NCBI GenBank assembly: GCA_026026165.1
Contig: JAPEUD010000078.1
Location: 1 to 64,000, forward strand
Length of the DNA: 64,000 nucleotides
DNA from: Sarea resinae
Lineage: Eukaryota
Reading direction: 5' to 3'
Below are positions 20,073 to 62,751 of this stretch, one piece after another (the stretch's first letter is position 1; each line of letters starts with the position of its first letter). The notes under the pieces are model-generated. The model had not been told where the DNA came from and did no database searches. It saw nothing but the letters and a program-made list of their open reading frames with translations. Made by a program: the position numbers and the translations under genes.

Positions 20073-20957
20073 ACTTGGCAGACGATGCAAGAGGACTTTC
20101 TATGTGCTTTGTCGGAGAATCCCCTCGTTGGCTGTAGATGCTAGAACTGTCATTTGATGTCTGCAGCGATATTCCCAATTGAATGTGGAGCTTGTTCTGG
20201 TGTTGGAAGGATCGAGGATTGGAGCCTGGAGTTGGGAGACCTTTACACCTACGATTTTGATTCTCTGAAGTGGTTCTATCACAGCACTGTATATTTTATG
20301 GTTATTGATTCCTCGAAGCCGATTGATCACATTTGATTCAGATGATGCTTGGGCTCGATATGTACCTCGCAGTACGCTTGAGTGTACACAGTACGCTCTT
20401 ATCTTATCCGTCTTATCCGGAGTCCCTCGAGCGCTCTAGCCCTGGGCAGGGTTCTCGAACGTACCTACTACCTTATGTAAGGTAAGCATCTACTCCGAGT
20501 ACCCAAGGAGCTCGTAACAGGTAGTTCTACCTGCATCGTCGAGTGTCTCGCTCCCACAGGAAGTGGCGACGAGGAGATATTCAAAGTACACTGTACTCAG
20601 TACCAACCTTTGGGTATCGTTGACGCCATCAGCGCCATCGGACGCCGTCACAATTTCCGATTGTGAGCCACATCCTTACTGTATGGTCCCCGAATTCCAA
20701 ATCCGATCCGTCTTACCCTATCTCCCTAGACTCCCTAGGAGTATTCACAAATAATCTCCAATCTTTTGCCTCGCTTTCACTCCATATTGTTCGAACGTCA
20801 CCTCTTCGTTCAATACTGAATACCCCATCAGGATCACTGCCGATAATCACCATTGCTGTTGCTTCTCCCAACCTTGACTTCTTCAGCTTCATTGATCACG
20901 GCGAAGTTTCCATTGCCACCGCTTTCTCTTGTCACCATCTTGACACTTGCAATCCTC

Positions 20958-21763
20958 ATGGCTTTCACAATGTCTCCATCCCTAACTCGCCTCTTTCGGC
21001 CCTTTTCCAGTAGCCGCTTGAGTCTCCATCCGGAAGGTGGTGGCTCCAACATTCCTCCCAATGCGCAGATCGCCACCGTTGCTGCAGGGTGCTTCTGGGG
21101 AGTCGAACACATGTATAGAAAGACCTTCGAAGGCAAAGGCTTGCTCGATGCCAAAGTTGGCTATATCGGTGGAGACAAAAAGCATCCTAGCTATCGAGCG
21201 GTGTGTACAGGAAACACTGGGCGTATGTCTCCTCGTCACTAGAATGTTACTGCTTCCCTCTGCGCTGCTTTTAGGAACATATGAGCTAAGGGCAGGACAG
21301 ATGCGGAGTCACTCCAGGTTGTATTTGATCCGGACCAGGTAACTTACCGGCAGCTACTTGAGTTCTTCTACAAGATGCACGATCCTACAACGATGAACAG
21401 TCAAGGTCCCGATACCGGAAGCCAGTACAGGAGCGCCATCTTCTTCCACAACGAAGAGCAGGAAAGAATTGCACGAGATATCACCAATAAGGTGCAAAAG
21501 GAATGGTGGAACCGTGGAAAGGTGGTTACGGAGATAATCCGTGAGTCTACATTTCTCCTGTACGCGAACTGCACGAGACGCTGACGGCCTTAGCTGCTGG
21601 CGAATGGTGGGACGCAGAATCTTACCATCAATTGTACCTGGAGAAGAACCCATCGGGCTATGAATGTCCTTCGCAGTAGGTTGACCGAATAAGCTGTTGT
21701 CTGCATTTCTAGCTACTAACAGGGCCCAGCTTCCTTCGCACATTTCCCCTACTTTCGGAATGA
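20958..21763 (+). CDS. msrA: Peptide methionine sulfoxide reductase MsrA
   Basis: Catalytic GCFWG motif, TGHAE across intron 1, QGPDTGSQYRSAIF, AESYHQLYL, C-terminal GYECPSHF. Three GT-AG introns. Confidence 0.95.
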
Positions 21764-23209: not shown

Positions 23210-23509
23210 TCACGTATAATGCTCCCTCATGACACGCTGAAAGCGCCAGGGTCTCCTCTCCCTCGTTTCCTCCCGCTCGCGTCGACAGTCCTCGCACTTC
23301 TGGCACACGGCCCGCATTCGGCGCTCGCGGATATTGCGGCCGTAGAGGGGTGCGCAATTCGACGACCACATGAAGGGCAGGGTGTACCGCGAACGCTCCC
23401 AGGGGTCGTTGATCCGGTTGAGCTGATGCCTTATCAGGTCGCAGTCGCGGACGAAGAGCTTCTTGGTCCGGTGGCCGCACAGGTAAACTTCTACCTCGTA
23501 GAGACACAT
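23210..23509 (-). CDS. Small (99 aa) Cys/His-rich hypothetical protein, MC-x8-CGH...C...C...CxxC pattern
   Basis: Internal ATG at 23509 gives MCLYEVEVYLCGHRTKKLFVRDCDLI...NCAP...VCQKCEDC. Coding-like GC-rich composition. No homology search was run. Confidence 0.6.
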   Translation of the reverse strand: MCLYEVEVYLCGHRTKKLFVRDCDLIRHQLNRINDPWERSRYTLPFMWSSNCAPLYGRNIRERRMRAVCQKCEDCRREREETRERRPWRFQRVMREHYT

Positions 23510-25075: not shown

Positions 25076-26582
25076 CTATAGAGCGATCGCTCCGACAATG
25101 GCGATCAATCCAGCAAATAGCGATCCTTGGAGGATCCGTTCACTTTTCACCGGTGACGCGCCACTGCCCTTGCTGTTACTGCTGCTGGAGCTGCCGCCTT
25201 GACTGAACCCATTGGAACCGGCGGTAGACTTCGCGGTCGCAGCCGTAGATGCCCCAGTAGCCGAAGAGGCGGATGATTCTGACGAAGCAGATGCACTTTG
25301 AGCACTGTTATCACCAGGTCTACCGCCTGATAGACCAGGTACCTGCGGTGCTGCTGCGCTACTGCTAGCGGCAGCTGACGAGCCCGTCTTCTTGCCAGAT
25401 TTCTTTGCTCCAGAGGATGCCGACGACGAAGATGCGCCTAGCTTCGGGTTCTCACCAGTAGCCTCGAATGACGAAAGAATTGTCGGATCGTTGACGGTGG
25501 CGACAGTGTCATTCGTTCCCGCGGCGGAGTTAAAGATGTAAGACTTCGAACCTGTAACATTGGCACCTTGGGGAGGATCGTAACACTCGACGTTGACGTC
25601 GCTGACCATTGCATAGTAGTAGCCGTTGGTCATGTACGGGCTGCTCCACTGAATCTGCCCGCCAGCCCATGCAACTGTACCCGCGCCGTTGGAGGGCAGA
25701 CCAGCAGGCCACAGGGAAAGCTGTACTCGGGCGGGAGTTTGCGGGTAGTCATATTGATTTCGAGTAGAATTCCATGTGGTGTTGCGGGACTTGGTACGTC
25801 CAACCACGCCATCAATAGACCAGGTAATCTGATCGGGTGTCCAATCGATCTCGTAGGTGTGATAGTTTTGGAACGTGTCCGAGTCGACGGTGATGTTTAA
25901 TTCATTGTCATCTAGGATTTGTCAGCATGAGAGGTTTAAGGTGGACGAGATGATACTACGCACAGTCTGTAATGCCTTGGAAGTAGTAATTGGACTGTGC
26001 ATGAGTCGTATCGGTTCCAACGAATTCGAAATCAATCTCGTCCTTTACGTCGGACAGGAGGATGAAGGCCGTGACGACACCAGCGCCACCGCTCGTCTTC
26101 AGGGTTGCGGAAACCTTGCCGTACCAGACGTAAGCCGTGCTAGCAAGTAACGTTCCAACACTACTTTGAGGCATCGTCAGAAGAACCTGATCGGAATAGA
26201 CGACAGGCTCGCCGCTGGAAACCCAGTTGGCCTTGGATGAGTCGCCGAGATACTTGGTATTGGCCTGGACTTGGCTGAGGTCCTTGAATTTGTAGTCTGA
26301 GCTTCGGCAAACGGGTGCCGGCGCGCAGGAGTCGAGGCTGTGTGAGAAGAGAGGATCGCAGCCGCCGAGGCAATATGCTCCAACACCACACTCACCATAT
26401 TCTGCAAATCACCATGATCAGCCATGGCACATCAACAGATTCAAGAGAGAAAGCTTACGAGAACAGCAAGGAGTGTCCGCCGGGCAATTATTGTTGGCGC
26501 CGCATTTGATGGCGCCGTCTGCATAGACGGCAGTAGCAGCCGCGAAGACCGCCACGAGGGCCGAGATATGGAGGCGGACCAT
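25076..26582 (-). CDS. utr2: GH16 cell-wall chitin transglycosylase, Utr2/Crh2-type (signal peptide, chitin-binding module, Ser-rich stalk, GPI signal)
   Basis: Signal peptide MVRLHISALVAVFAAATAVYA, Cys-rich CPADTPCCS..GECGVGAYCLGGC, catalytic DEIDFE, YPQTPARVQLSLW, Ser/Ala tail and hydrophobic C-terminus. Two introns. Confidence 0.9.
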
Positions 26583-46920: not shown

Positions 46921-48491
46921 CTAAGAATGGAAGAATGATCCCGAAGCTGATTCGTCGAATGGATATGCTGTAGCCCCAGAACCTTGGACGCCTTCGAGTA
47001 TGTCCGAGTCGTCGCAGAAGAAAGGCTCGCCTGGCACATTAGGGATGCAGCCCACGATATCCTCAAATCCAAAACTGTAGCTCTCTCGTTTTACGGGCTT
47101 TGGCCGCGAGTATGGAGAATGAGAGTCTAGACCATAGGAAGGCTGCCTCGTGATGTGCGAATTGATGCCTGGAGTCAGAGGTGGGCCATGGCTATGATTC
47201 TCGATGGATGATCGAGGAACAATGGCCATGCCACCAGCTGCTCGGTCGATCAATTCCATCTCGTCGGAATCCTCGACTCTGCCAGCTCGCCTCGATCTCG
47301 CTGCCTTCCTGGCGGCTCGTCCTCCTTTGGCTCCAGACCGTTGACGCTGTGGTGCTGGGCTATCTATTCGGGCAGTCTTCTTAAATGGGACGCTCTTCCG
47401 GAACCGGGTTGTAGACTTGACGCCGTTGAGTACGGCCGATGGTTCAAGCACCCAGATGAATCCCTTCTTCGACTCATCTGCCGGAAAGACCTGGTCTACC
47501 TTTTGGAACGCCTGCTTTGATTAGCAGCCCGATCATTTGAAGCGCCGATGGAACCTACCCCGTTCATTGAAAGGTTATGACGAATGCTGTTCTGCCATCC
47601 CTTGGACGAAGAATTCTTTGCCTTGTCCGTATTTCGCTGGAACCATCCGTAGATATCCCGGAGTACCATTTTGTGTTCGGGTACACTCATTAGAGCCTTG
47701 TAGATTAGCTTTGCATAAGGCTCTTCATTAGTCGTGCCGTCGGTCTCGTCATCATCTTCCACCGTAGGCATCAGGTCAGGCGAATAGTCATCAGGCATGA
47801 TCACTGAATCTGCCGGGGCGCTGCCTTGATGATTCTGATCGGGCCGAAATAATCCTCCGTTGATGTCGTTGTCAAATCTATCAAGATGAAGCTGCGCTAG
47901 AGCCTGGCTTTCAAGCTCCATAGGGGATGTGCTTTCCCCCGACTCTTGTTGCTGGTCATCAGCAAAGAGCGAATATTGTTGCGGATCAAGATGATAAGCA
48001 GCGGGTGGGTATGCCTCAGAGATGGAATCGAGAGACCCTGAAGCAGAATCTGTAAATTGCTCGGATTGATAGCTTCGTGGACACCCGGCCAGCGAATTGG
48101 TCACCGGATAGCTGTACGTGGTATCGGACCAGAGCAAGCTGTCTGGTAGCTTGATCTCTGCACATGCTCGCCTGTTGGGATTCTCAAGCGGCAGTCCATG
48201 GCATGACTGAAAGTTCATGCCCGCCTGGTACAAGTTTGAAGCAGCGAGGAAACTTGGCCACTGAGGAGGTTCCGTCATTGATATGATGTTTTCGGGATAT
48301 ACTGGAGCTCGTGCTGAAACTGGAAGGGACAGAGCTGGGGGATCAAGCATAGACGATATACTCTTTTGGGGCCGACGATTTGATGCTTGGGAAGGGATAG
48401 AGGACGGCCTTCTCGAGGAAGCGTTGAGATCGTAACTCGTGGGAGATCGACGGGGGAGCAACTGTTGACATGGCGATTGCTGCGAAGCCAT
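46921..48491 (-). CDS. Forkhead-box transcription factor
   Basis: PYAKLIYKAL...MVLRDIYGWF...KGWQNSIRHNLSMNG|AFQKV...KGFIWVL. Intron 47558-47512 restores the domain in frame. Confidence 0.92.
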
Positions 48492-49453
48492 TGCTCGTTG
48501 GAGGCTGTCGGCTTTGACTAAGTTTATCGTACGGACGGGAGGCTGAAGTAACGGAGCGCTTTCCAGAAAGGACAGAAGCGACAGACAATGCATGACTATT
48601 CAAATGGCGCAGATTTCCGCACGGGAGAGCTTCATTCATAAATCTACCAGTCATGCGACGTGGGTGCCAGCGCATCAGGAGATAGGTCTATTGCAGTAGA
48701 ACAGAGAGACAGACGGACAGAAAGAGAGAAAGAGAACGAAAGAGAAGACGGCGAGCGTGGGAAAGGGAAAAGAGAGGCAGCATAGCAAACAGGACGAGAA
48801 TATCAAAAGGCCGGGCCCGCCTGAGGGTTGTTTCTCTGCATCATCCTCGCTTGTACCTGTGCTTTGCTATGCTCCCCTACGTCTGCTCTGCTCTGCTTCA
48901 CTGAATACTGCGTGAATATCCTGACCATGCCTGACCCTGTCCTGGTCAAGCGATTGGCATTGCTGCCGGATCACGTACACGAGCAGGCGGAACCAATGCA
49001 ATGCCCAGGGTGGAGATCCCCGCTATGTGACACAGACCTTGTCGTCGATCATTGCGCAGGGAGGGCGAGCAAGTGGAGGTCAGTAGGGGGAAGGGGAGGA
49101 AGGGGAGGAAGGGGAGGATGGGGAGGAACTGCATGTAGGGAGAGCGGTGGGCAGGCAATTCCGTGGGTTGCGAATCGGAGGGATGCAGTTCTGGTAAGGA
49201 ATCAGAATGAGCCATTGGATGGACGCGCGCATACGACTACGGGGCGACAGGCAACGAGCGTCCATCGATGCCGACCATGGGATTCTGCAGCCCCAAGAGG
49301 GCTTCCAGAAGGTCTTTCCAGCCCAGAGCGGGGAGCAGACGTAGCCCAACGGTCAAGAGGGGGAGCCTGACCAGCTGGAGAAGTGTCAAGTCTTAGGTCG
49401 GTGGGTGATGCTCTGCCAGATTCGAATCAACCCCACCAGTTGGGATGGATGGA

Positions 49454-50982: not shown

Positions 50983-52768
50983 TTATTTTCTGTAGTAGAT
51001 CTGGATCATGATGTTAGCGGGATCATGGTTTGCTGTGACACAACCAACGTACCTTCTTGAATTGGAAATGGAGTTGTAAGATGCCCTATGAAACCTGTCA
51101 GCAGTGTGGCATGTCGCATGATTCAAAATCCGCTCAGACCCCACCTTGTCAAAACTGCTCTTGAACCCTCTCTCTCTTTTGGCGCTGTAGTCCCACTCCT
51201 TATCGACGATCCGGAATGCGATATCTTCATACGGAGGGCCGGCGATGAAGCGAATAAGGCATGTGTCCTCTTCTCCAGCAGGAGCAAATGATTGACCCCG
51301 TTTTCGCCCATTCTCGCGCTCAATGCGGTATGTTGGTGCTTTGCTTTTGTCGATAAGATCGGGGTAGAATATGTTGAATTTGTATCCCTGAACCACTTTC
51401 GGTGGTGGATTGTCATGATCGTAGTGGGTTTGGTTGTACTTGTTCCACTCGTAACCCATTTGGACCCGGTTGAAGTATCGTGGCTTTCGCGGTCGATGCT
51501 TGCCCGTCCATTGGGACTTTGAGGTTGTTATGACGTCTTCTTCGCCAGCAAATATCTCCTCATCTTCGCCAATACCGCGCGCCACCTCTCGTTCATAAAG
51601 GGCTTTTGTCGCTTGCGAGAAATCTTCATTTGGAATAGCAGCAAACCGAGAGACACCAGAGTCGACACGTTCAGGAGCCTTTGTCTCGGTCTGTATGACG
51701 CTCTTCTCTTGCTGTCGTTGTCTCATAGGTACAAATCCCATTTTGAGCGTATTCTTTCGATCAACAGCCTAGAGGAAGTGAGCGTAGCCACGAAGTATGA
51801 GGGATGGAAAGACTAACTATTTTCTGCAAGAAGTCCCTCTCATCTATAGACTCTAGGGTTTTGTCTTCGGTCCGAAGTTTAAGAAGCGGCTCTGGATCTA
51901 AAGCAGTCGAATATTGGACCGTGGTGGGATATGTGCCTTCTCCCAAAGTCTGACCAGAGCCCTTTCCGTCGAAAATACGACTTAATTTCTCAGATACAAT
52001 TTCAGCCTCCTCTATTTGCTGTTGTCGTAGGCTTTTGAGGCGATCATCGATGACCGACTGGTATATAGCTTTTAGCTTAGCCTTAGCCTTCCAGACCCGA
52101 AGAGTTCGTAAAAGTTGCTCCCAGTAATCGAAGTCGATTGGCTCATTGGAGTCTAGTTTTTTCACTACCTGTTTCTCTAAAGCTTGTAGTTCGTCATATG
52201 ACTTGGCAGCGAATGTCCGATCAATATCCGCGGAGACTGAATTGATCGCGCGACCTTCTGGGTCTTTACCAGAGAGCTTGAGCCGGCGATCTGCGCAGAT
52301 AGTCTTCATACTCTGCTGATTGTAAGTAGAGTCCGGCAATAAAAGGAAGTGGGTATGACATACGTTCCAGTAGTCTCGGCTGCTGGCCCGAGTCTCCAAG
52401 GACGCAAAAGCATCAATGTCATGTTCCAGATCTTGTAGTTGGGGTGCATCCAGACTGTCGAAAATCCCTTCAGGATTGACTACAGGGAGTTCGCCCTCCT
52501 CTTCGTTCTCTTCGAGAGGATCTGGCTCGACCACGGAGAGCAACACGGCCAACCAGTCCACAGGCTTCGCCCGACCCTCTTTGACCCGAATCTCGGCCTT
52601 TTTCTTTGCCTGCTTGAGAACAAATTTGTCTTCGTCGGCGACCCAGGCAGCTTCCTGTGATTCCGCCGGTCTTTTGGCTGGAATCGTGGAAGTAGTACGC
52701 TGATTTGGACGGCCTCCACGCCATGGGGGCGTTTCTTGACTTCCTCGATTCCCTCGATTCTCCATCAT
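50983..52768 (-). CDS. cactin: Cactin (spliceosome-associated factor)
   Basis: Motifs FVLKQAKKKAEIRVKEGRAKPVDWL, RKPRYFNRVQMGYEWNKYNQTHYDHDNPPPKVVQGYKFNIFYPDL, GPPYEDIAFRIVDKEW. C-terminal exons GILQLHFQFKK|IYYRK*. Confidence 0.93.
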
Positions 52769-53254
52769 GGAGCTTCGCACTTTGGCCGAATAGCAAAACT
52801 GCTTAAGGCCTCGCAAAACAAGCAGAAAGAAGATTGCCAGTAAAGGTGTGAGGACCGGTTGGTAAGGTAGAGTAGAGTAGGGAAATAATGACAATAATAA
52901 TGGCCGAAATGTTCCAGTCAGTAGCACTGCGGATCGACGTCAAAAGCGCGGAAGTTCCCGGTCCTCGAGTACGGAGTACTCCTGCTAACCTATCCATGGA
53001 TGATACTGCCGAGCGCCTACTTGGTATGGAGGTATTCTTAGAGGTCGTCAAGTCAGCAGTCAGACTCCAGGCAGACGTGTTACCTCCCCATGGGACCACC
53101 TCTCGACACTGACTGCGACTAATGCACACTCACTTTACAGTTCCCCGCTCTGGTCTGTCCATATGATTGTCCCATTTACCGTACAGCTCATCTGCATCTA
53201 TTGCTCCATCTCGTGTGATAATAAAGCGTTTTTCGTTGAGCCTTCAGATTCATT

Positions 53255-54820
53255 ATGCCTTCAGGATGGACCCAATTTCCTCTAGGATCCTCTGCAAGCG
53301 ATCTGCCACCGCTTCTTGTCAAGAGCGATTTCTGCAGCACTGGATACAGCATCTTTGTCACTGATCTAGACTACATATGGACAGAAAGCTTAGATCGCCG
53401 TCAGATCTTCAAGAGAGCTTTGAATGAGAATACGAGCATAGATCCTAGTGAAGACCCGAGCCAGATGAGAATTCTCCTGGAGAAAATTCAGGCAGCAATC
53501 CAAGGTGATGAGGATACCGATATGATTCTTGCATCCCCTGAGGGGCCGCAACAATTGGTCTTAAAGATCACTGCTCCGCTCCCAGCACCGTTGTCCCCGT
53601 TGGAATGGACTCTTCGCTTGGAGCTCCATCCTAAAGGCACCCTCCAGGACGAGCTAATATTGCCTCTATTAAGTGCGCAGATCGCTCTATCACAGCGATC
53701 ACAGTCACTTATGGATATAATTCGAGAAAAAGACCACGTGATTGCTAGACTAGTAGATAAGCTCGAAGCTTCAGGCACCGATTTGGGCTCACTATTTCCT
53801 GGGGCAGCGGGTTTGATGTCGAGGAACAAGAACAAGGGCTCTAACAGAGAGACCGTTGGTCGGGTAGTCAGGGGACTGGGAAATTTTGATGAGGAAGAAT
53901 GGAGTGCCGACATGAAGAAGACATTTAAAGGAGAGGACTCCTTTGGCGACACCTCAAGTCTTGAAGGACTGGTGGAAAAACATCAGAAACACGAGAGAAC
54001 CGATAAGTGGTGGGAGGGCTTAGGGCAAAATCCCGCCGCTGATACTCCTAGAGCGGCCTCAGCTAGGACACAGTCCAGGGTAGGGTCTCGTTTGAAGATG
54101 CCAGCCAATGCACGGACTGAAGGGAAGCAGAATAGCGACGAGGAATTCCAGGTAGGTCAGTGAGATGTGTTGACTTCAAGGGTACTAAAATATAGCAGCG
54201 ACAGAAAACTCCACCCAATATTCGACTCCCAGAAAAGCCGGTCTTGATCGGAGCCGAAATGCAGACAAGCAATGATGCGATCATGGGGACGAGAGCTGAT
54301 AGTCCGGATGAGACAACTGACGAGGAGGATGACCTCGAAGGCATATCAGCACCAGCAAGCCGCAGAGCCAGTGACCCAACATCCAAGAGTAAGCATATGA
54401 TACCGTATAATTGAGGATCTGCAAGTTAACGAACCTCAAGTTGATGTTATGCCAAAAGCAGCAACCACCCCATTACCTTTACAACCCAAAAAGAGACTCG
54501 GTACGCTTGGAGGTCGAAGTAAAGCTAATGTAAAAGAGACTGCAGCAGAACCATTGATCCGGGACTCACCTGCGAAGTCTTCTCATAATGGAAAGCTTGG
54601 AGTCATTGGTGGGAAGAGCCGCACGTCCAGCGAGCAGGGTGCATCCACCCCAGATAGAAACCAGCTCGTGCCAAAGGAAGACGATCAAGTACGAAAGGTG
54701 CCAGCAAATGAAGAGTCCGAGGAAACTCCCCAGGACAGGGCGAATCGAAGGCGGGAGCAATTAAGGAGAGAACTTGAGGAGAGAAGCAAAGCCCCACCAA
54801 AAAAGAAGCGTAGGTTTTGA
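53255..54820 (+). CDS. XLF/Cernunnos (Nej1-like) non-homologous end-joining factor
   Basis: N-terminal LLVK...YSIFVTDLDYIWTESL..SIDPSED..LKITAPLP..LEWTLRL, coiled coil KDHVIARLVDKLE, basic C-terminus KKKRRF. Two introns starting at 54152 and ~54389. Confidence 0.85.
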
Positions 54821-55512
54821 TTCTGCCGCGGCAAGTGCCACCTACTTTGCCGAAGCCGACTACCTGGGTCTATCCAGAAGGCCTACATGCGATCAGCTTG
54901 CGGATGGTGTGATAGAGGAGTCATTGGAAAGACGAAAGATTTGACAGTGGACTTGGCAAAGTATCACTCCTTGCGATTAAGGTCTGGCAATGACTTGCCA
55001 GTCTCAATTCGTGCTCCAAACGAGGACCGGGGGATAATCCCAGGGTGAGGCTATCTCAACGATATGCTTGCCGCCTAATCATATACCAAAGTCCGCAGAT
55101 GAGTCTAGCCAGCGAATGAAGCATCTAGAATATACCGGGTGCTATCTCTGGCCGGCGATGCCAATCAAATGGAAAGCTGCATTGCTTTTCTGGCATTTCG
55201 AAGCCATGGACATGAAGCGGAGACGCGTGAGACGACGTAACAGAAGAGGTCACGGGCAGATAAATGTTTTCCTTGAGATGCTTCTGAGGATGCAACACAT
55301 TCATCATGAACAAACACATTCATCATCTCGGCTATTTCCCACTTATACTTACTGCACTGACAATCGTCGGTGATGCTCTCGGTTGCACCCATCATACTCA
55401 CTCATGATCCTGAGTTTACAAATAGCGTCACCTCAACTCAGCTTCCATAGAGCTGGACCCTTTGCCTTCACAGGCCTCTTACATCTTCCAGCTCTTGCAC
55501 CAAGCTGACAAT

Positions 55513-58500
55513 ATGTGTCGATATCGATACGAATACTTTGGAAATTGCACGCATCAGAAATTTGCCTTGTACGAGCTTTGTCAGGATGCCGACGTGTTGA
55601 TCAGAGCCAATGATGAACAAAACCAGACTTCACGGGTAGTACCCCAATTTCCAAAATCAGGACCCGGCTCAGATTCATCATGGCCTCCGAGTACCCAGAC
55701 TGGAAGAACAGTAACTCGTTCTTTGCCCGAAAGCTTCTCAGATCTATTTCCAAGGTCGATCTCAAACAGTGGACCGCAAGCTATGCCATGGAGTGCCCTG
55801 ATAGCTAAATCTGGCACGCAAGGAAATATTACAGGAGCGGAGCTCATGAAGAATGAGCATGACAATTTTTATCGTTCTGCATTCCTAGGACAAGGACAAG
55901 GACAAGGAAAAATAAACCCGAGGCTTCGAGGAGGCGCCACTTCTGACCATATGTCACCGCAGTTTGAATCCGATACTGGGCTAGAGAGAGTATCTACCTT
56001 GTCTGGTCAGAACAATACAATTTCATTTGCCACGCCAACCGGAATGTCGTGGGCGGAGGAAATCGAATTTGAGGAAGAACAGCGCTCAACTCAAGGCCAA
56101 GTGCATAGCCTACCACAGAACCTAGCTGCCGAAGCAAAACTACCTTGGAAGCCGGCTGGAATTTCCTGGGCCGACGATGTGGAGGAAGAAGAGATCCAGC
56201 TTTCCAATCATGCTACAGAACCCATCATCTCTAAATTCTTGACTACGGAGAATCCCGTGGAACCGCGACAGAGAACATCATGGGCCGATGAAGTGGATAT
56301 GGACGAAATGATAACATGTGAACAAAGTCAAGGCTCCACTTCAAAGACTAGAAGAATCCAAGAGGGTAATTCTGCGATGTCACCGAGTTCGTGGGCTGAT
56401 GTTGTCAAGCTTGATTACGCAGAGCAGTCATTTGAAAAACAATCATTAGCACCATCCAGCCAAGTAACGCCAGACAAGCCAGCAGATAAGAAATGGATAA
56501 CGACGTGGGCTGATAAAGTTGAAAAAGAACATGCAACAGGGCCCATCCGTTTTCAGGAGGAAAAGGCTGTAATTCATCGCTCAGCGGTCGAGGCACACAG
56601 TGGGGTTCCCACGAATATGAGAGCCCTGCCTTGGTCCTTTAAGCCTAGACTTGATGGCAAGAAGAGCCGAAGTAGCTGGCGAGTGACAGATCAATCGTCT
56701 CCCAATACCGATATTTCTAGATCGGGTCGTGTCTATCGGCCAGGAAAGGAGCGTATTTACATTCCTCCCAAGGAGGACCTCGCAATCGCATTGCGCAGTT
56801 CGCTTCATAAGTCGAAGAAACCGTGGCGGGGGCCAGGTGCTGTCAGTCGTGCAACAGATCACCAGCCCGCAAAAGGAGTAAGGAATCTCGAGACGCCCAC
56901 TGAGGGAAAATCCAAAGTCAGTCCGCAAGAGTCAATTGATAAGTTCAAAGTGTTTGATGGCTTTCATGTCTTTGATAATGTCTCCCGAAATCTCCTGAAA
57001 GACCCTCAGAATGAATCCATCTTGGGCAGAAAGGTCTCTTTTGGTGACATCCGTACGGATGAAGCTTCAGTATGCTATTCAGCGTCTCAGGGTTTGTCAA
57101 GAACAGCAAGTCCACGTGAGCTGCCGTCTCAAGACAATACTGCTCGTATCAAAGACCTTATCGCGGCTTTATTTCCCCAGCCGCATCGTGTGAGATCCGA
57201 GAGTACGCCAATTCCGACCAGACCAGAGGATGACCTGATGAGCAGACCGCGAGCCTCATCACTGATCCTAAGCAAAATACTGCCTGCGATCAATCGTCGC
57301 ACGCTTTCGGACCAAACAGTGGCGTTGGATTCCTACGAGCATGTTGAGAAAGAGCTGTGGACCCTCGGAGATGCTATTGAACTGCGAGGAAATATTTCAG
57401 TCGCTGAGGGTAGACAGATCCATTCAAAAATCAAAAACACGCACTTTGCAAGAGAAGACGTGCCAATTGCCGACAAAAGAGACTTCGAGAGAAGCCGATC
57501 AGACGAGGGACAGGTTCATTCTGTGGCGACGAGCAATTTGTCTTCGGAAAACTCTTACGTCAGTGAGAACACCGAAGTCCTTGGCAGGCTTGTTCCCTTA
57601 GCGCGAACAAAAAATCAAACTATCGAGGATAAGAGTCTTCAGACTCGGAGTCCGTTCTCCCATTCACCTGTGCTCCAAGTTACACGGGTTTCTGAAGGCG
57701 AATCCGCGGGACATTCCCCTAGCGATGCTTCTGTCCAGCATGGCCGCATGCCAAGTTCACTCTTTACTGATCCGGCTATTGAAGATAATCTTGATCAAAG
57801 CACCGGCTCGTCGACTGAACAGAAAAAACCCCCACTTCTCAGCCTCAATCTAAACCCAGATGCTCCATTATCAAGTCCACTAAAACTTCCACAGGCTTCG
57901 CCGACCGTACATCTTGCAGACGGTTGGAAAGAGCCGAGTAGACAGCGGAGAAAGACTCGGAAGACAGGGGCCCAATGGAAAAAGAAGCAGCCACTGTTGA
58001 ACTTGGGTCACACTGATACCGAGAAGCACCTCTCGTCTGACGGTTTCGATGACATTCGAGGCGGAGAAATCCAGCGAGGGGCTACGACTGATATCTGGAA
58101 GATAAGACATAGCAGTGATGATCACGGAGATAGTTGGCATAAAGTTGAAGCTAGGGGACGGCACGCTCCCAATGCGGACGGTCCACCGAAGGAGCAAAAA
58201 CAGAAGGAGTCAAAGCGAGGCAGAGGTAGGGGAGGCCTGGGTCGAAAATCTACGAAACCCAACGCCCGCGGGACGAAGTCTCACCAGTTCGGCATTGTAC
58301 CGGCTGCACTCCCAACTTCAGAACCGTCTTCCCGGACTTCTTCTGATACTCAGGCATTACGAGGTATTCAGGGTTCTCTGTTAATCAAAGGGCTAAGCTA
58401 CGCTGCCATTGCCGACCCGCATTCACCGCAGTCCAATCACTCCAGCATACTATCATCTGATGGCATCTTTGTGTCGGCGCCCCAATCGCCAATAAAGTCC

Positions 58501-59361
58501 CCAACTAAGCCACGTCTTGTCCGCGTAAAGCATGATAAGGCGACTCAAACCCCTCAAACCCCTCATTTCGACGATGCGCCTCTATCAGAGGAGGATTATT
58601 TCTCTGCATCAGAGGTTCCCGCTACAAAAGGTAAGGCAGCTATCGACGTCAGACCAAGAACAGTCTCCAAGTCATCCACCCGCGTTGCCTCAGCCAAGAC
58701 CTCCTTTGTACAACTTCAGGAACAGGACTTGCAAAGAAGACTCGAATCAGATGCCATCGATAAGACGACCAGACCAGAGGCGCTCGATGATAAGTCCGAG
58801 CGTCAGGTAGTTCACAAATCATTAGGGCCGCAAGCCAAGCCGGCGATCATCTACGATAGCAAAAACGGCCTCGATCCCACCACTCCACCATTCGTACGCC
58901 GTCGGCCGCCTACTTCATTCTCCATGATGCGGGGGACATTCTCATATGCACCTTCTCTAGCAATTGAGCCGTGGTACATGACAGATATCGACAGAGCATC
59001 ACCAACTTTCAATGCGTCATTCCACGCCCCTGACATACCAGAGCCTTCGGCCTACTGTCAACCGCCTGTCGCTCCGCCTCACAGTCTCAACCCCGTTCCA
59101 GTTACAGAAAGCCCACAAACTGAACCCCGCACTGGCCCCCAAAACAGTCGTGCAGAACAAATCCGCTGGCTTTTTCAGGAGAAGGAACGACGACCTGGCA
59201 TGAAATTCGTTCGCGTGCTACTCCCCGACTTCGAGTCAAAAATCCGTCGCATCCGCCCCTGTGGCGTCTTCCACATCGAGAAAGCGACCGAGGTGCTGAA
59301 TCAATGGTGTCCAGACTGCGTCAGCAAGTACGGTCTTGACTTCCACTCCAACTACCTGTAG
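55513..59361 (+). CDS. Large intronless, mostly disordered hypothetical protein (1282 aa) with terminal Cys/His motifs
   Basis: Uninterrupted 3.85-kb ORF. Starts MCRYRYEYFGNCTHQKFALYELC and ends RPCGVFHIEKATEVLNQWCPDCV. Interior is rich in S/P/E/K/R. Confidence 0.85.
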   Translation: MCRYRYEYFGNCTHQKFALYELCQDADVLIRANDEQNQTSRVVPQFPKSGPGSDSSWPPSTQTGRTVTRSLPESFSDLFPRSISNSGPQAMPWSALIAKSGTQGNITGAELMKNEHDNFYRSAFLGQGQGQGKINPRLRGGATSDHMSPQFESDTGLERVSTLSGQNNTISFATPTGMSWAEEIEFEEEQRSTQGQVHSLPQNLAAEAKLPWKPAGISWADDVEEEEIQLSNHATEPIISKFLTTENPVEPRQRTSWADEVDMDEMITCEQSQGSTSKTRRIQEGNSAMSPSSWADVVKLDYAEQSFEKQSLAPSSQVTPDKPADKKWITTWADKVEKEHATGPIRFQEEKAVIHRSAVEAHSGVPTNMRALPWSFKPRLDGKKSRSSWRVTDQSSPNTDISRSGRVYRPGKERIYIPPKEDLAIALRSSLHKSKKPWRGPGAVSRATDHQPAKGVRNLETPTEGKSKVSPQESIDKFKVFDGFHVFDNVSRNLLKDPQNESILGRKVSFGDIRTDEASVCYSASQGLSRTASPRELPSQDNTARIKDLIAALFPQPHRVRSESTPIPTRPEDDLMSRPRASSLILSKILPAINRRTLSDQTVALDSYEHVEKELWTLGDAIELRGNISVAEGRQIHSKIKNTHFAREDVPIADKRDFERSRSDEGQVHSVATSNLSSENSYVSENTEVLGRLVPLARTKNQTIEDKSLQTRSPFSHSPVLQVTRVSEGESAGHSPSDASVQHGRMPSSLFTDPAIEDNLDQSTGSSTEQKKPPLLSLNLNPDAPLSSPLKLPQASPTVHLADGWKEPSRQRRKTRKTGAQWKKKQPLLNLGHTDTEKHLSSDGFDDIRGGEIQRGATTDIWKIRHSSDDHGDSWHKVEARGRHAPNADGPPKEQKQKESKRGRGRGGLGRKSTKPNARGTKSHQFGIVPAALPTSEPSSRTSSDTQALRGIQGSLLIKGLSYAAIADPHSPQSNHSSILSSDGIFVSAPQSPIKSPTKPRLVRVKHDKATQTPQTPHFDDAPLSEEDYFSASEVPATKGKAAIDVRPRTVSKSSTRVASAKTSFVQLQEQDLQRRLESDAIDKTTRPEALDDKSERQVVHKSLGPQAKPAIIYDSKNGLDPTTPPFVRRRPPTSFSMMRGTFSYAPSLAIEPWYMTDIDRASPTFNASFHAPDIPEPSAYCQPPVAPPHSLNPVPVTESPQTEPRTGPQNSRAEQIRWLFQEKERRPGMKFVRVLLPDFESKIRRIRPCGVFHIEKATEVLNQWCPDCVSKYGLDFHSNYL

Positions 59362-60188: not shown

Positions 60189-62270
60189 TCAGTGCACGTG
60201 GCTATGGGCCGCACAGCCCCACTGTCCCGCAGCCTGCTCTTGCCCTTCAGCACCGGCTCCTTCCTCGCCGTCTCTCTTGACCTTCCTCTTAAAGTCCCCG
60301 TGGTAGCAATCCAAGACGTCCAGAGCGCCGCCATGATCGGCTTCATCGGCCACCTTGCCCATCCAGCCGACCCGCTCACCGTCCATTTCTTGACTTACTC
60401 CTCCGTGGCCGCTGACGGCGTTGAGGGTGTCGAGCAGGGTGCCCTTCTCGCGCAACTCACGTGTCACGGACTCGACGTCGACGCCTAGGTAGTCCCGGAT
60501 GAAGGCGCCGATTTCCGTGTTCTCGTGGTTGCCGGTCAGGGCGCGTGCGATTTGGGGCGACGAGGAGTAGATGTTTACGTCGACGGCTGTATGATATATA
60601 TGTTAGCCTTGGTGGGTGGCGTGCTTGTTTGGTGAGATGTTGTGGTAGGGTAGAAGGCAATGGGGAATGCAAGAAAAGGAAGCAAAAACGGAGAAAGAAT
60701 GGAAACGTACCGGAGTGGCCATGCGTAGACCAACCCACTTGAGCGCGCCGGCTGACAATGTCCGCGAATATATATGCAGCGGCGCCGGGCTGGTCGACGA
60801 GAGACTGTATTTCGTCTTTGGACGCGTCGAAGACGCCGAGACCGTCTTGGAGGAGCGTTTGCACGTAGGATTTCATGTCTGAGGTTGAAGGAGAGGAAGA
60901 GGAGATGTGTGCTTGGAGGTCTGCGTGGAGATGTTCGGCGGAATGCGAGGCATTGGCCAGTACGCCGGGATACCAGAGGTACTCCGGGTAGGTCGAGTGG
61001 AGCTCTGTGAGGTAAGTCGTTAGTATCTGGCCTGTTGCGATTGTGCAAAGTAAAGGGATTCATTCTTACGTCTGGCGGTAGCTAGGCCTCCGGTCTCGTG
61101 GTCACTGGTACTGACCATTACACCAGGGGTGTCGGATTCGTCTAAGAACTCGACGACACTCTGGAATGCGTGGTCGTAGGCAAGGACCTCGTGTACTTGT
61201 GCAACAGGGTCGTTGGCATGGCCAGCATGATCGATCCTGCTTCCTTCGATCATCAGGAAGAACCCCTTATCGCTGTCCTTGGTGGCCTCGGTCAGAGCTC
61301 GCAAGGCCGTCCTCGCCATCTCGTCGAGTGATGGATAGATGTCTTCCTGGGTACGACGATCAACCTCGTAGGGAATGTCGTCTTCGGCGAAGAGTCCGAG
61401 CAGGGGAAGCTTGACACCACTGCCCATGTTCAGCCCGTCAAATCCCTGTCGGTCAGAGACGTAGCTGAAGCCATTCTTCTCGGCCATGCTGACCACATCC
61501 TTATCATCCTGCCGACACGAGCCATCGGTAGTATTCGGTAGGAAGTGGCAGCGCCCACCACCGAGAATCAGATCGACCATTCTTCCCAGAGGATAGTAGC
61601 CAACCTCCTGTTCAGCTATCCGGTCCTCCTCGCTGCGCATGTTAACATGAGCAGCAAAACAAGCTGGCGTCGCGTCGGTGATCCGCGTGGTAACGACCAG
61701 CCCTGTCATGTACCCTGCCTTCTTCGCAGCCTCTAGAACAGTACCGCAGGCCGAATGATCCGGTAGGACGGAAATTGCTCCATTGTAGCTCTTGAACCCG
61801 CACGAGAATGCCGTAGCACCAGCAGCAGAGTCCGTGACGAGGCTCGACGACGATCTGGTTCTCGAGCTGCCAATCATATGCCTGTCGAGAACAAGAACAT
61901 CGTCCAGCGGCAACCCGCTCTCGAACTGTCGGAAAGACCTGGTCAGGGACAAGCTCGTGGGGCCCATACCATCCGATACCATAAAGATCATGTTGCGCTT
62001 GCCATTAGGTTTGGGTGCCGCATCCTTAGACGACGTCTGTTGGTGCTCGTAAACAACGGCAAGCACTATCACGACGGCCGTAGCTAGAAGAGCCCAGACG
62101 AAGAGACCGATCTGCCGCCAGAAGAGCCAGCTGTGCTTCTTCTTCTCACGATCTCTGCGTGAGGTTCTTTCTCCTGTGAGAAGGGCATCTTCTTCGGCAA
62201 TGTCGCGGTCATCTGAATGGAAGCTCGAGGTGCGATCCGCCGAGAGTAACGGCTGCTGCCCTCCCGCCAT
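60189..62270 (-). CDS. pho8: Vacuolar/repressible alkaline phosphatase (type II membrane anchor)
   Basis: N-terminal TM segment; motifs IFMVSDGMG, VTDSAAGATAF, ITDATPA, MIEGSRIDHAGH, TSDHETGG, GWSTHGHS|AVDVNIY, GNHENTEIG. Two introns. Confidence 0.95.
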
Positions 62271-62751
62271 GGCAGCGTGGACCAAAAGGGTCGTAGATCA
62301 AAATTCGGTGATTATTGAAGATGCATGCAGTTTCGTCGATGGCAGCCAAGCATAGAACTTGAGGGGGCGGTGGATACGACAGATGAGACTCTCGAGGGGT
62401 TATGCCCAGGATGTTCCCAGGGTCGTCAACTGACGTTGGAGCTCCCGCTTGGCAGACGCTCACGATGATGTCCGAGCTCGGTACCGCAGATCTGACGTAC
62501 ATGGGCCGCCGTATCGTTGCTCATGTAGTACACTCCGATCTACTATGTATATCGACTTGCGATTGGCTCCATTTTCCATACAGCGAGCTGTTTCAATTAC
62601 CGTCATGGAGCAACATTTGATGAACCCTCGAGCAAATATAATGATTCCCCATCCTGGTCACAAAGTCAGACCAAACACCATGATTTAAATGTACAGCTTG
62701 CTGAGAATCAATGCTCTTGGTTGTGATGAGCGCGCTCTACGATCCACTGCG

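Follow-up and report, generated by a model that had tools for sequence, protein, structure and literature searches.

The object of this analysis is a long open reading frame, P0001, in a 64,000-nucleotide stretch of contig JAPEUD010000078.1 of Sarea resinae (hereafter the window). It runs from ATG to stop over 1282 amino acids, as claimed in the earlier note on this DNA, and the features discussed below are collected in Table 1. The frame is in fact already open from position 55426, which makes 1311 open codons in total, and given the frequency of off-frame stops in the same stretch (120/2562) such a length is not a matter of chance. Codon usage is best in the proposed frame, out of three, in 113 of 114 body windows of 58 codons, with scores that average 8.9 and never fall below 1.5. 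The neighbouring ORFs lie at 53255-54820 and 61020-62297. Judging from the sequence, P0001 is a real gene of an unremarkable kind, seen so far in one resin fungus only.

Table 1. Positions of the features discussed in the text (numbering of the window; residues are those of P0001)
Feature	Position	Strand	Basis or remark
P0001, single-exon ORF, 1282 aa	55513..59361 (stop codon included)	+	translation, codon usage
N-terminal cluster, C2, C12, H14, C23	55513..55581	+	regex; translation uncertain
First exon of the deposited model, 8 nt, with an out-of-frame ATG (relative to the long ORF)	55586-55593	+	
Intron of the deposited model, 176 nt, GTGTTG...CAG	55594..55769	+	P0002 start matched to the DNA
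RLRGG, residues 137-141	55921..55935	+	regex
Five Trp-acidic motifs, each with an acidic run after it, residues 179-336	56047..56520	+	regex, shuffles
Basic cluster, NLS-like, residues 807-826	57931..57990	+	K/R count
RGG/RG box KRGRGRGGLGRK, residues 901-912	58213..58248	+	regex
SYAAIA, residues 962-967, single occurrence	58396..58413	+	regex
C-terminal segment of ~70 residues with C1250, H1254, C1266, C1269	59149..59358	+	regex, weak helix-strand-strand-helix prediction
PCG-x14-CPDC	59257-59319	+	regex
P0003, unannotated 99-codon ORF	23210..23509	-	MC-x8-CGH-x9-C, 28 residues, C-x16-C-x2-C-x2-C

The protein was also claimed to be an orphan, and this holds: database searches matched nothing but this gene itself, which is on record as a hypothetical protein of 1199 amino acids (P0002) from a Sarea resinae MAG. 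A search of 5.8 billion clusters with the whole protein returned itself alone among 6736 candidates, and with the C-terminal 88 residues itself alone among 7; phmmer, with the 1199-aa form as query and 1.84 billion representatives as target, likewise found only that protein. For P0001 the homologue searches covered the length classes other than "shorter" and "longer", with queries taken from the whole protein and from its C-terminal end. None of 150 pattern matches in metagenome loci was confirmed, among the listed sequencing runs no RNA run and a single DNA run, which may be the source of this DNA, contain the stretch, three runs searched at 80% likeness gave only that contig and a 37-base chance piece, the sequences of solved structures held nothing for the whole protein, and the ESM Atlas gave no usable match to its C-terminal 93 residues. 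Pfam recognized no family in the whole protein, in either end or in eight overlapping 250-aa tiles; an Iso_dh match was discarded as chance (11.6 bits, the cutoff being 27). A literature search for Sarea resinae gave taxonomy papers only. Since no orthologues were found, no signal of purifying selection can be read for the motifs or the termini.

P0002 opens with MPTGPQAMPW, that is, with MPT followed by a join to the long frame at residue 87. Its beginning at an out-of-frame ATG, with a tiny first exon and then an intron, is the reason why it has no N-terminal cysteine cluster. If this model is correct, or if translation starts at Met91, the protein would have about 1190-1199 amino acids, the MC...CTH...C pattern would be untranslated leader or intron, and the C-terminal cluster alone would be real. 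We regard this as unlikely, although likelier than the other alternatives considered below. The annotation does leave the N-terminal cluster out, the first 86 codons reach only 0.1 in codon usage, a value under that of each of the 114 body windows, and non-coding DNA, when translated, tends towards richness in Cys and Tyr. The 27 codons over the N-terminal Cys/His cluster score 0.0, and the 58 codons that the deposited model takes as intron score 0.6, again below every body window. On the other hand, the deposited model has to read an 8-nt exon in a frame of its own and to splice out a 176-nt intron from a GTGTTG donor, and neither that donor sequence nor an intron of that size is typical of Pezizomycotina. 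Further, no stop interrupts the long frame over the 119 codons before Met91, for which the chance is about 0.003 at a stop frequency of 0.047 (by arithmetic from the off-frame stops), and this favours translation of the N-terminal part. There is also an A at -3 of the first in-frame ATG, and the N-terminal pattern is found again at the first ATG of a second ORF, P0003. Translation of the first 86 codons is uncertain; in our opinion, the 5' end is probably mis-called in the deposited model, and the long ORF is worth considering in its place.

The interior was described as being of low complexity. Its composition is indeed rich in S, P, R, A and E, but the description is overstated, as Tandem Repeats Finder sees just three tiny DNA repeats. 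By a crude FoldIndex calculation 859 of 1232 windows of 51 residues (70%) are disorder-like, and crude hydropathy places fold-prone stretches near residues 480-620, 690-720, 938-989 and 1124-1176. For residues 1091-1282, the pLDDT of AF2 in single-sequence mode averages 43.8 and nowhere reaches 70; no secondary structure is predicted for residues 1091-1212, and the C-terminal ~70 residues reach 50-58. It seems reasonable to consider the interior mostly disordered.

The five [ST]WA[DE]x[VI] repeats reported earlier are indeed there, at residues 179, 218, 256, 293 and 331, which gives spacings of 39, 38, 37 and 38 residues. In 5000 shuffles of the protein the core [ST]WA[DE] appears 0.03 times on average and at most once, against the five times observed. 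Comparison of the protein with itself yields 36 similar 9-mer pairs (0-14 in 30 shuffles), which are mostly SWAD units and the KK.PLL and GQVHS pairs; peptides occurring twice are KK.PLL.LN, RS.xGQVHS and [AL][ML]PWS. Outside their cores the SWAD units of this one protein no longer resemble each other at all, whereas the core has been preserved, a pattern that selection on the motif would leave. The five Trp-acidic motifs at their even spacing would dock several copies, or several pockets, of one partner, and the other repeated peptides would supply additional contacts. Such multivalent docking is, in our reading, the candidate use of the array.

Trp-acidic motifs of cargo adaptors bind the TPR domain of kinesin light chain (PMC6214655, PMC5450233), and they resemble the motifs of P0001 in having a Trp amid acidic residues and in being presented several times in a disordered region. 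A search of the sequences of solved structures with two SWAD units gave nothing for one and a designed protein at E = 1.3 for the other, and SWAD-type strings in the literature were unrelated words only. The kinesin-1 W-acidic core has Asp or Glu directly after Trp; P0001 has Ala there in 5/5 motifs, thus we do not assign it to that class. A SWAD-type motif also stands near the N-termini of eIF4B and eIF3g, and there too acidic residues come after a Ser-Trp-Ala-Asp core within a disordered segment, but as a single copy where P0001 has five; we treat this likeness as a lead only. Proteins of the GW182 type, with Ago-hook or W-motifs, carry many GW/WG dipeptides in a disordered region. P0001 has 10 [GS]W or W[GS] dipeptides, one of which is GW, and [ST]W occurs 8 times versus 3.6 expected (p = 0.02).

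Several shorter motifs had been pointed out in the interior. RLRGG and SYAAIA are both present. We rejected the reading of RLRGG as a ubiquitin or ubiquitin-like tail, given that neither the whole protein nor tile 1-250 matches a ubiquitin family of Pfam at E up to 10. The RG-rich tract is also found (RGRGRG at 902), and at the level of the motif RGRGRGG at residues 902-908 qualifies as an RGG box, with 3 RGG and 12 RG in the protein altogether. The protein resembles RGG/RG-box RNA-binding regions in having this box plus two more RGG triplets; it differs from them in that the box is single and short and is accompanied by no RRM, KH or other RNA-binding domain of Pfam. In the basic cluster three overlapping 7-residue windows, from residues 810-812, contain at least 5 K/R each, and the cluster may serve as an NLS. 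With the RGG box and this cluster the protein would be able to bind RNA, be directed to the nucleus, or both. The PAM2-like segments were not recovered: an ELM-type regex had 0 matches, and the half-match LNPDA at 780 has Ser at the aromatic position. Hence what is left of the proposed RNA/translation-regulatory scaffold is one RGG box, at motif level, while its PAM2 part falls away.

We now turn to the ends. The N-terminal MC-x9-CTH-x8-C occupies residues 1-23 as claimed; the C-terminal cluster is present as well, at residues 1249-1269, but its spacing is PCG-x14-CPDC and not x15. The 1282 residues contain nine cysteines, three in the first 23 positions and three in the last 33, and if cysteines were placed at random, such clustering at the two ends together would have a probability of about 1e-7. 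Each end offers four candidate metal ligands (CCHC at the N-terminus, CHCC at the C-terminus), thus a zinc site shared between them is not required. The simplest arrangement would be two separate four-ligand mini-knuckles, not necessarily halves of one site. In Pfam, no curated zinc-finger family matches the first 100 aa, the last 122 aa or P0003 at E up to 10, and we speak of putative zinc binding.

The terminal cysteines could instead be redox or disulfide sites and not metal ligands, above all WCPDC (residues 1265-1269) as a thioredoxin-like CxxC. Publications about thioredoxin-like proteins and thiol reductases do contain the same five letters. However, no thioredoxin-like family of Pfam matches at E up to 10, and WCPDC is followed by 13 residues only. 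A stretch of 13 residues is too short for the remainder of a thioredoxin fold, and we consider the redox explanation very improbable.

The major idea of the earlier note was that the two ends fold together around zinc, so that the interior of about 1200 residues becomes a closed loop displaying its motifs. Known precedents for distant cysteine groups closing on one metal are the CD4/Lck zinc clasp and the Rad50 zinc hook, where the site is shared between chains or distant segments. There, however, each side contributes two ligands, whereas P0001 has four at each end, which individually suffice in number. The concentration of 6/9 cysteines at the ends speaks for a clasp, and so does P0003, in which clusters of the same order, MC-x8-CGH-x9-C and then C-x16-C-x2-C, lie 28 residues apart. 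The first 50 residues of P0003 and of P0001 align at z = 4.4, a score reached by 2/2000 shuffles, and a second match to the broad N-terminal pattern is expected in only 8/300 random windows.

On closer inspection the help from P0003 is limited. Its similarity to P0001 is measurable in the N-terminal part only; the C-terminal parts are not significantly alike (z of 1.7 and 0.7), and C-x15/16-C-x2-C is common by chance, with 7 observed versus 3.2 expected per window. P0003 is unannotated and its codon usage is poor, -4.7 in its own frame versus +11.3 on the opposite strand, which makes its status as a gene doubtful. A search for relatives left none of its 4 candidates within an E of 10. The ESM Atlas places closest to it clusters of unnamed Ascomycota proteins, 82-113 aa long, with scores of 0.88-0.90, a lead only, as the recognition of 2204 is below the 2300 mark. 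The AF2 single-sequence model of P0003 has a mean pLDDT of 43.8 as well, and all its residues stay below 70. A degenerate DNA pattern of the common N-terminal motif found 23 loci in metagenomes, 8 of them in frame and all in ORFs of 12-65 codons, and none was gained as a family member. The longest in-frame match lies on a bacterial-looking contig, in a reading frame that begins further upstream, and was rejected. P0003 may possibly be a compact relative of the N-terminal module.

Given also that the N-terminal cluster is possibly untranslated, the sequence evidence leans against a shared site, and we hold the closed-loop clasp to be quite improbable; end-to-end folding is at best putative. A predicted complex of residues 1-60 and 1195-1282 with two Zn scored 0.00 in both runs, but its controls did not fold and the partner pLDDT was below 50, so it carries no weight either way. 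A broader version of the idea is that MC-x8/9-C-x-H-x8/9-C at a protein start, together with a downstream C-x15/16-C-x2-C, forms an undescribed ascomycete zinc module that would tolerate an insert of any length, from 28 residues in P0003 to about 1226 in P0001. We give it a very small chance.

The reading that we prefer, though we would put it at somewhat short of an even chance, is that P0001 is a lineage-restricted, intronless ascomycete gene whose product is a mostly disordered multivalent scaffold with two independent terminal knuckles. That is, a Sarea resinae-like ascomycete would encode a scaffold which works via short linear motifs. Many lineage-restricted disordered proteins are encoded in fungal genomes, and P0001 resembles the taxonomically restricted scaffolds among them in its long single-exon ORF, S/P/R/E-rich composition, repeated motifs, and lack of a Pfam domain and of relatives. 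It differs from them in the Cys/His clusters at both ends and in a Trp-acidic motif that occurs five times at regular spacing.

It could also be argued that P0001 is a lineage-specific ORF, either young or in decay, which has not settled into a function, and that its motifs are a product of internal duplication and drift. The failure to find relatives among 1.84 billion representatives or 5.8 billion clusters agrees with this, and the SWAD spacing of about 38 residues suggests an old internal duplication. Nevertheless, a frame of 1282 codons with consistent in-frame codon usage is not what such an ORF leads one to expect, nor is a SWAD core that is kept between wholly diverged flanks. We therefore consider it improbable and return to the disordered scaffold as the reading to be preferred.

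As it stands, P0001 is one more lineage-restricted disordered fungal protein, from which little follows. Its regularly spaced Trp-acidic motifs are nevertheless a clean and testable candidate for a docking array. P0003, like P0001, begins at its first ATG with the N-terminal Cys/His pattern, which is a hint of a small ascomycete module as yet without a name; if the zinc module is true, P0001 would be its long form, whose clasped ends would close the disordered array of motifs into a loop.

The 1282-codon ORF that the earlier note had placed at 55513 to 59361 on the + strand does run from ATG to stop, and the observation was for the most part right. Its frame is already open from 55426, and it is a real gene: with stop codons at a frequency of about 0.047, chance cannot produce 1311 open codons. 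In 113 of the 114 windows across the body, codon usage is better in this frame than in either of the others.

The same locus is represented in the database by 'MAG: hypothetical protein M1819_006591 [Sarea resinae]' (P0002, 1199 aa), which is identical to the long ORF at 1196 of 1197 positions from residue 86 onward. Its first residues, MPT, derive from an ATG that is not in the frame of the long ORF; given this start, the tiny first exon and the intron that follows, P0002 does not include the N-terminal Cys cluster. As to which 5' model is right, the evidence is mixed. The first 86 codons of the long ORF have a codon-usage score of 0.1, and the stretch of 58 codons that the deposited model treats as intron scores 0.6, less than any of the 114 body windows, whose mean is 8.9 and minimum 1.5; such scores are lowered also by rare residues, for example Cys and Tyr. 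This speaks against the long ORF and for the deposited model, in which the N-terminal cluster would not be protein at all, a question orthogonal to function. In our opinion that model is rather unlikely, since the frame upstream of Met91 is open for 119 codons (chance about 0.003, from an off-frame stop frequency of 120/2562), the first in-frame ATG of the long ORF has an A at -3, and the deposited donor and tiny first exon are atypical among Pezizomycotina introns. Hence the deposited structure at 55586-55769 is probably a gene-prediction artefact that masks the first 85 residues, and the long form of 1282 aa is, in our judgement, fairly likely to be the correct one.

The description of the protein as an orphan agrees with our searches, as the only database match in all collections searched is the same locus. 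A word-indexed search of 5.8 billion clusters returned only the protein itself, both for the whole sequence (among 6736 candidates) and for the C-terminal 88 residues (among 7). Against 1.84 billion representatives, phmmer with the 1199-aa form likewise found itself alone. These searches covered length classes other than 'shorter' and 'longer', with the whole protein, its C-terminal 88 residues and the 1199-aa form as queries. A metagenome scan gave 150 pattern matches and none confirmed, and there was no match among sequences of solved structures. Pfam offers no family for the whole protein, either end or eight 250-aa tiles, apart from an Iso_dh match that we attribute to chance (11.6 bits, cutoff 27). 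Sarea is an isolated branch at class level (PMC7451776, PMC9157775); for a disordered protein that evolves fast, the orphan status may therefore be in part a product of sparse sampling. That the locus is instead a young ORF without settled function seems to us improbable.

Cys/His clusters are indeed found at both ends, the C-terminal spacing being x14 and not x15 as first reported. Of only nine cysteines, three fall within residues 1-23 and another three within the final 33; placed at random, they would do so with a joint probability of about 1e-7. The earlier note had proposed that both ends might fold together as one zinc site around the interior. Each end by itself holds four candidate ligands (C2, C12, H14 and C23; C1250, H1254, C1266 and C1269, with H1278 in addition), so that a shared site is not required, and two independent putative knuckles are the simpler reading; the single site is in our view very improbable. 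AlphaFold2 without an alignment gives helix-strand-strand-helix at residues 1213-1273, with a pLDDT of 50-58 only. The C-terminal CxxC reads WCPDC (59305-59319, +). This string occurs as a thioredoxin-type active site in papers on thioredoxin-like thiol reductases, which would favour redox-active cysteines; however, only 13 residues follow it, leaving no room for a thioredoxin fold, and thioredoxin profiles gave no match to the protein, so we hold such a role to be highly improbable.

Scanned over the six-frame translation of the window, the broad N-terminal pattern MC-x(5-12)-C-x-H-x(5-12)-C matches exactly twice, in the long ORF and in P0003, an unannotated 99-codon ORF. Of 300 random windows matched to this one in dinucleotide composition, eight contain one match and none two. 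P0003 reads MC-x8-CGH-x9-C, 28 residues, then C-x16-C-x2-C-x2-C, the same cluster order in compact form. Aligned locally, the N-terminal 50 residues of both ORFs score 37 against 20.1 +/- 3.9 for shuffles (z 4.4; 2 of 2000 shuffles reach it), with common positions beyond Cys and His. The C-terminal parts show no significant likeness (z 1.7 and 0.7), and the C-terminal pattern is by itself common by chance (7 observed, 3.2 expected). Strings of the MC...CGH kind at the protein start are probably common among Pezizomycotina hypothetical proteins. The codon score of P0003 is -4.7 in its own frame versus +11.3 for an opposite-strand frame; it is absent from the protein collection and has no homologue in a word-sharing search. 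The ESM Atlas clusters closest to it consist of small, unnamed proteins from Ascomycota and score no higher than 0.88-0.90. As a gene P0003 is doubtful, and we offer it as a lead on the possible modularity of the Cys/His ends. A strict DNA pattern of the shared residues yielded no convincing member from metagenomes. The metagenome contig L002 (1-1305) fits a degenerate form by chance. It is bacterial or phage-like in look, the frame of its small Cys-rich ORF begins upstream of the matched ATG, and it is no relative of the protein from Sarea.

Features of the locus, the compact ORF and the neighbouring ORFs
Feature	Position	Strand	Basis or remark
N-terminal cluster MC-x9-CTH-x8-C	residues 1-23	+	regex on translation
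C-terminal cluster PCG-x14-CPDC	residues 1249-1269	+	regex on translation
RLRGG	residue 137	+	regex on translation
Five [ST]WA[DE]x[VI]	residues 179, 218, 256, 293, 331	+	regex on translation
RGRGRG	residue 902	+	regex on translation
RGG box, single	residues 901-912	+	
SYAAIA	residue 962	+	regex on translation
Basic cluster, single	three overlapping K/R-rich windows starting at residues 810-812	+	
KK.PLL.LN pair	residues 770 and 823; 57820-57846 and 57979-58005	+	self-comparison
RS.xGQVHS pair	residues 191 and 662; 56083-56109 and 57496-57522	+	self-comparison
[AL][ML]PWS pair	residues 86 and 367	+	self-comparison
Deposited first exon	8 nt, from ATG at 55586	+	frame differs from long ORF
Deposited intron	55594-55769, 176 nt, GTGTTG...CAG	+	deposited model
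P0003, unannotated 99-codon ORF	23509-23210	-	broad N-terminal pattern scan
Forkhead-type factor	47496-48599	-	by eye
Cactin-like	50983-52939	-	by eye
Alkaline phosphatase-like	61020-62297	-	by eye
Methionine sulfoxide reductase-like	20847-21584	+	by eye
GH16 transglycosylase-like	25076-26408	-	by eye

Most interior motifs of the earlier note (RLRGG, the five Trp-acidic motifs, the RG-rich tract and SYAAIA) were recovered by regex; the protein also has one YIPP and 22 [ST]P sites. The supposed PAM2-like segments were not: a PAM2 pattern fits nowhere, and the sole half-site, LNPDA at residue 780, lacks the aromatic residue. By a crude FoldIndex 859 of 1232 windows (70%) are disorder-like, with some fold-prone patches. 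When the protein is compared with itself, 36 pairs of 9-mers are similar, whereas 30 shuffles give 0-14. The five Trp-acidic units have nothing but core and acidic tail in common, and the linkers of roughly 30 residues are unrelated, as one would expect where selection keeps a linear motif within an internal repeat that has otherwise diverged.

In its behaviour the protein is like disordered scaffolds rich in short linear motifs. It is no PAM2 carrier; its RLRGG lacks a surrounding ubiquitin-like domain; it lacks the thioredoxin-like fold despite WCPDC; it falls in none of the Pfam zinc fingers; and it differs from W-acidic adaptors of kinesin in that each of its five motifs has Ala after the Trp. 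The SWAD core may resemble N-terminal motifs of eIF4B and eIF3g; sequences of solved structures, searched with two repeat units, gave no relevant match. We tentatively propose, with confidence a little short of even, that the protein is a multivalent adaptor. A single partner, in several copies or through several pockets, would be bound by the five Trp-acidic motifs, the RGG box and basic region may contact RNA or drive nuclear import, and the terminal putative knuckles would be small structured anchor points. Five neighbouring ORFs resemble ordinary fungal housekeeping genes, judged by eye only, and nothing suggests a functional cluster with them. Taken together, this is a disordered protein of restricted taxonomic distribution and as such nothing unusual; two minor curiosities are the even spacing of its Trp-acidic motifs and the recurrence of its N-terminal Cys/His pattern.
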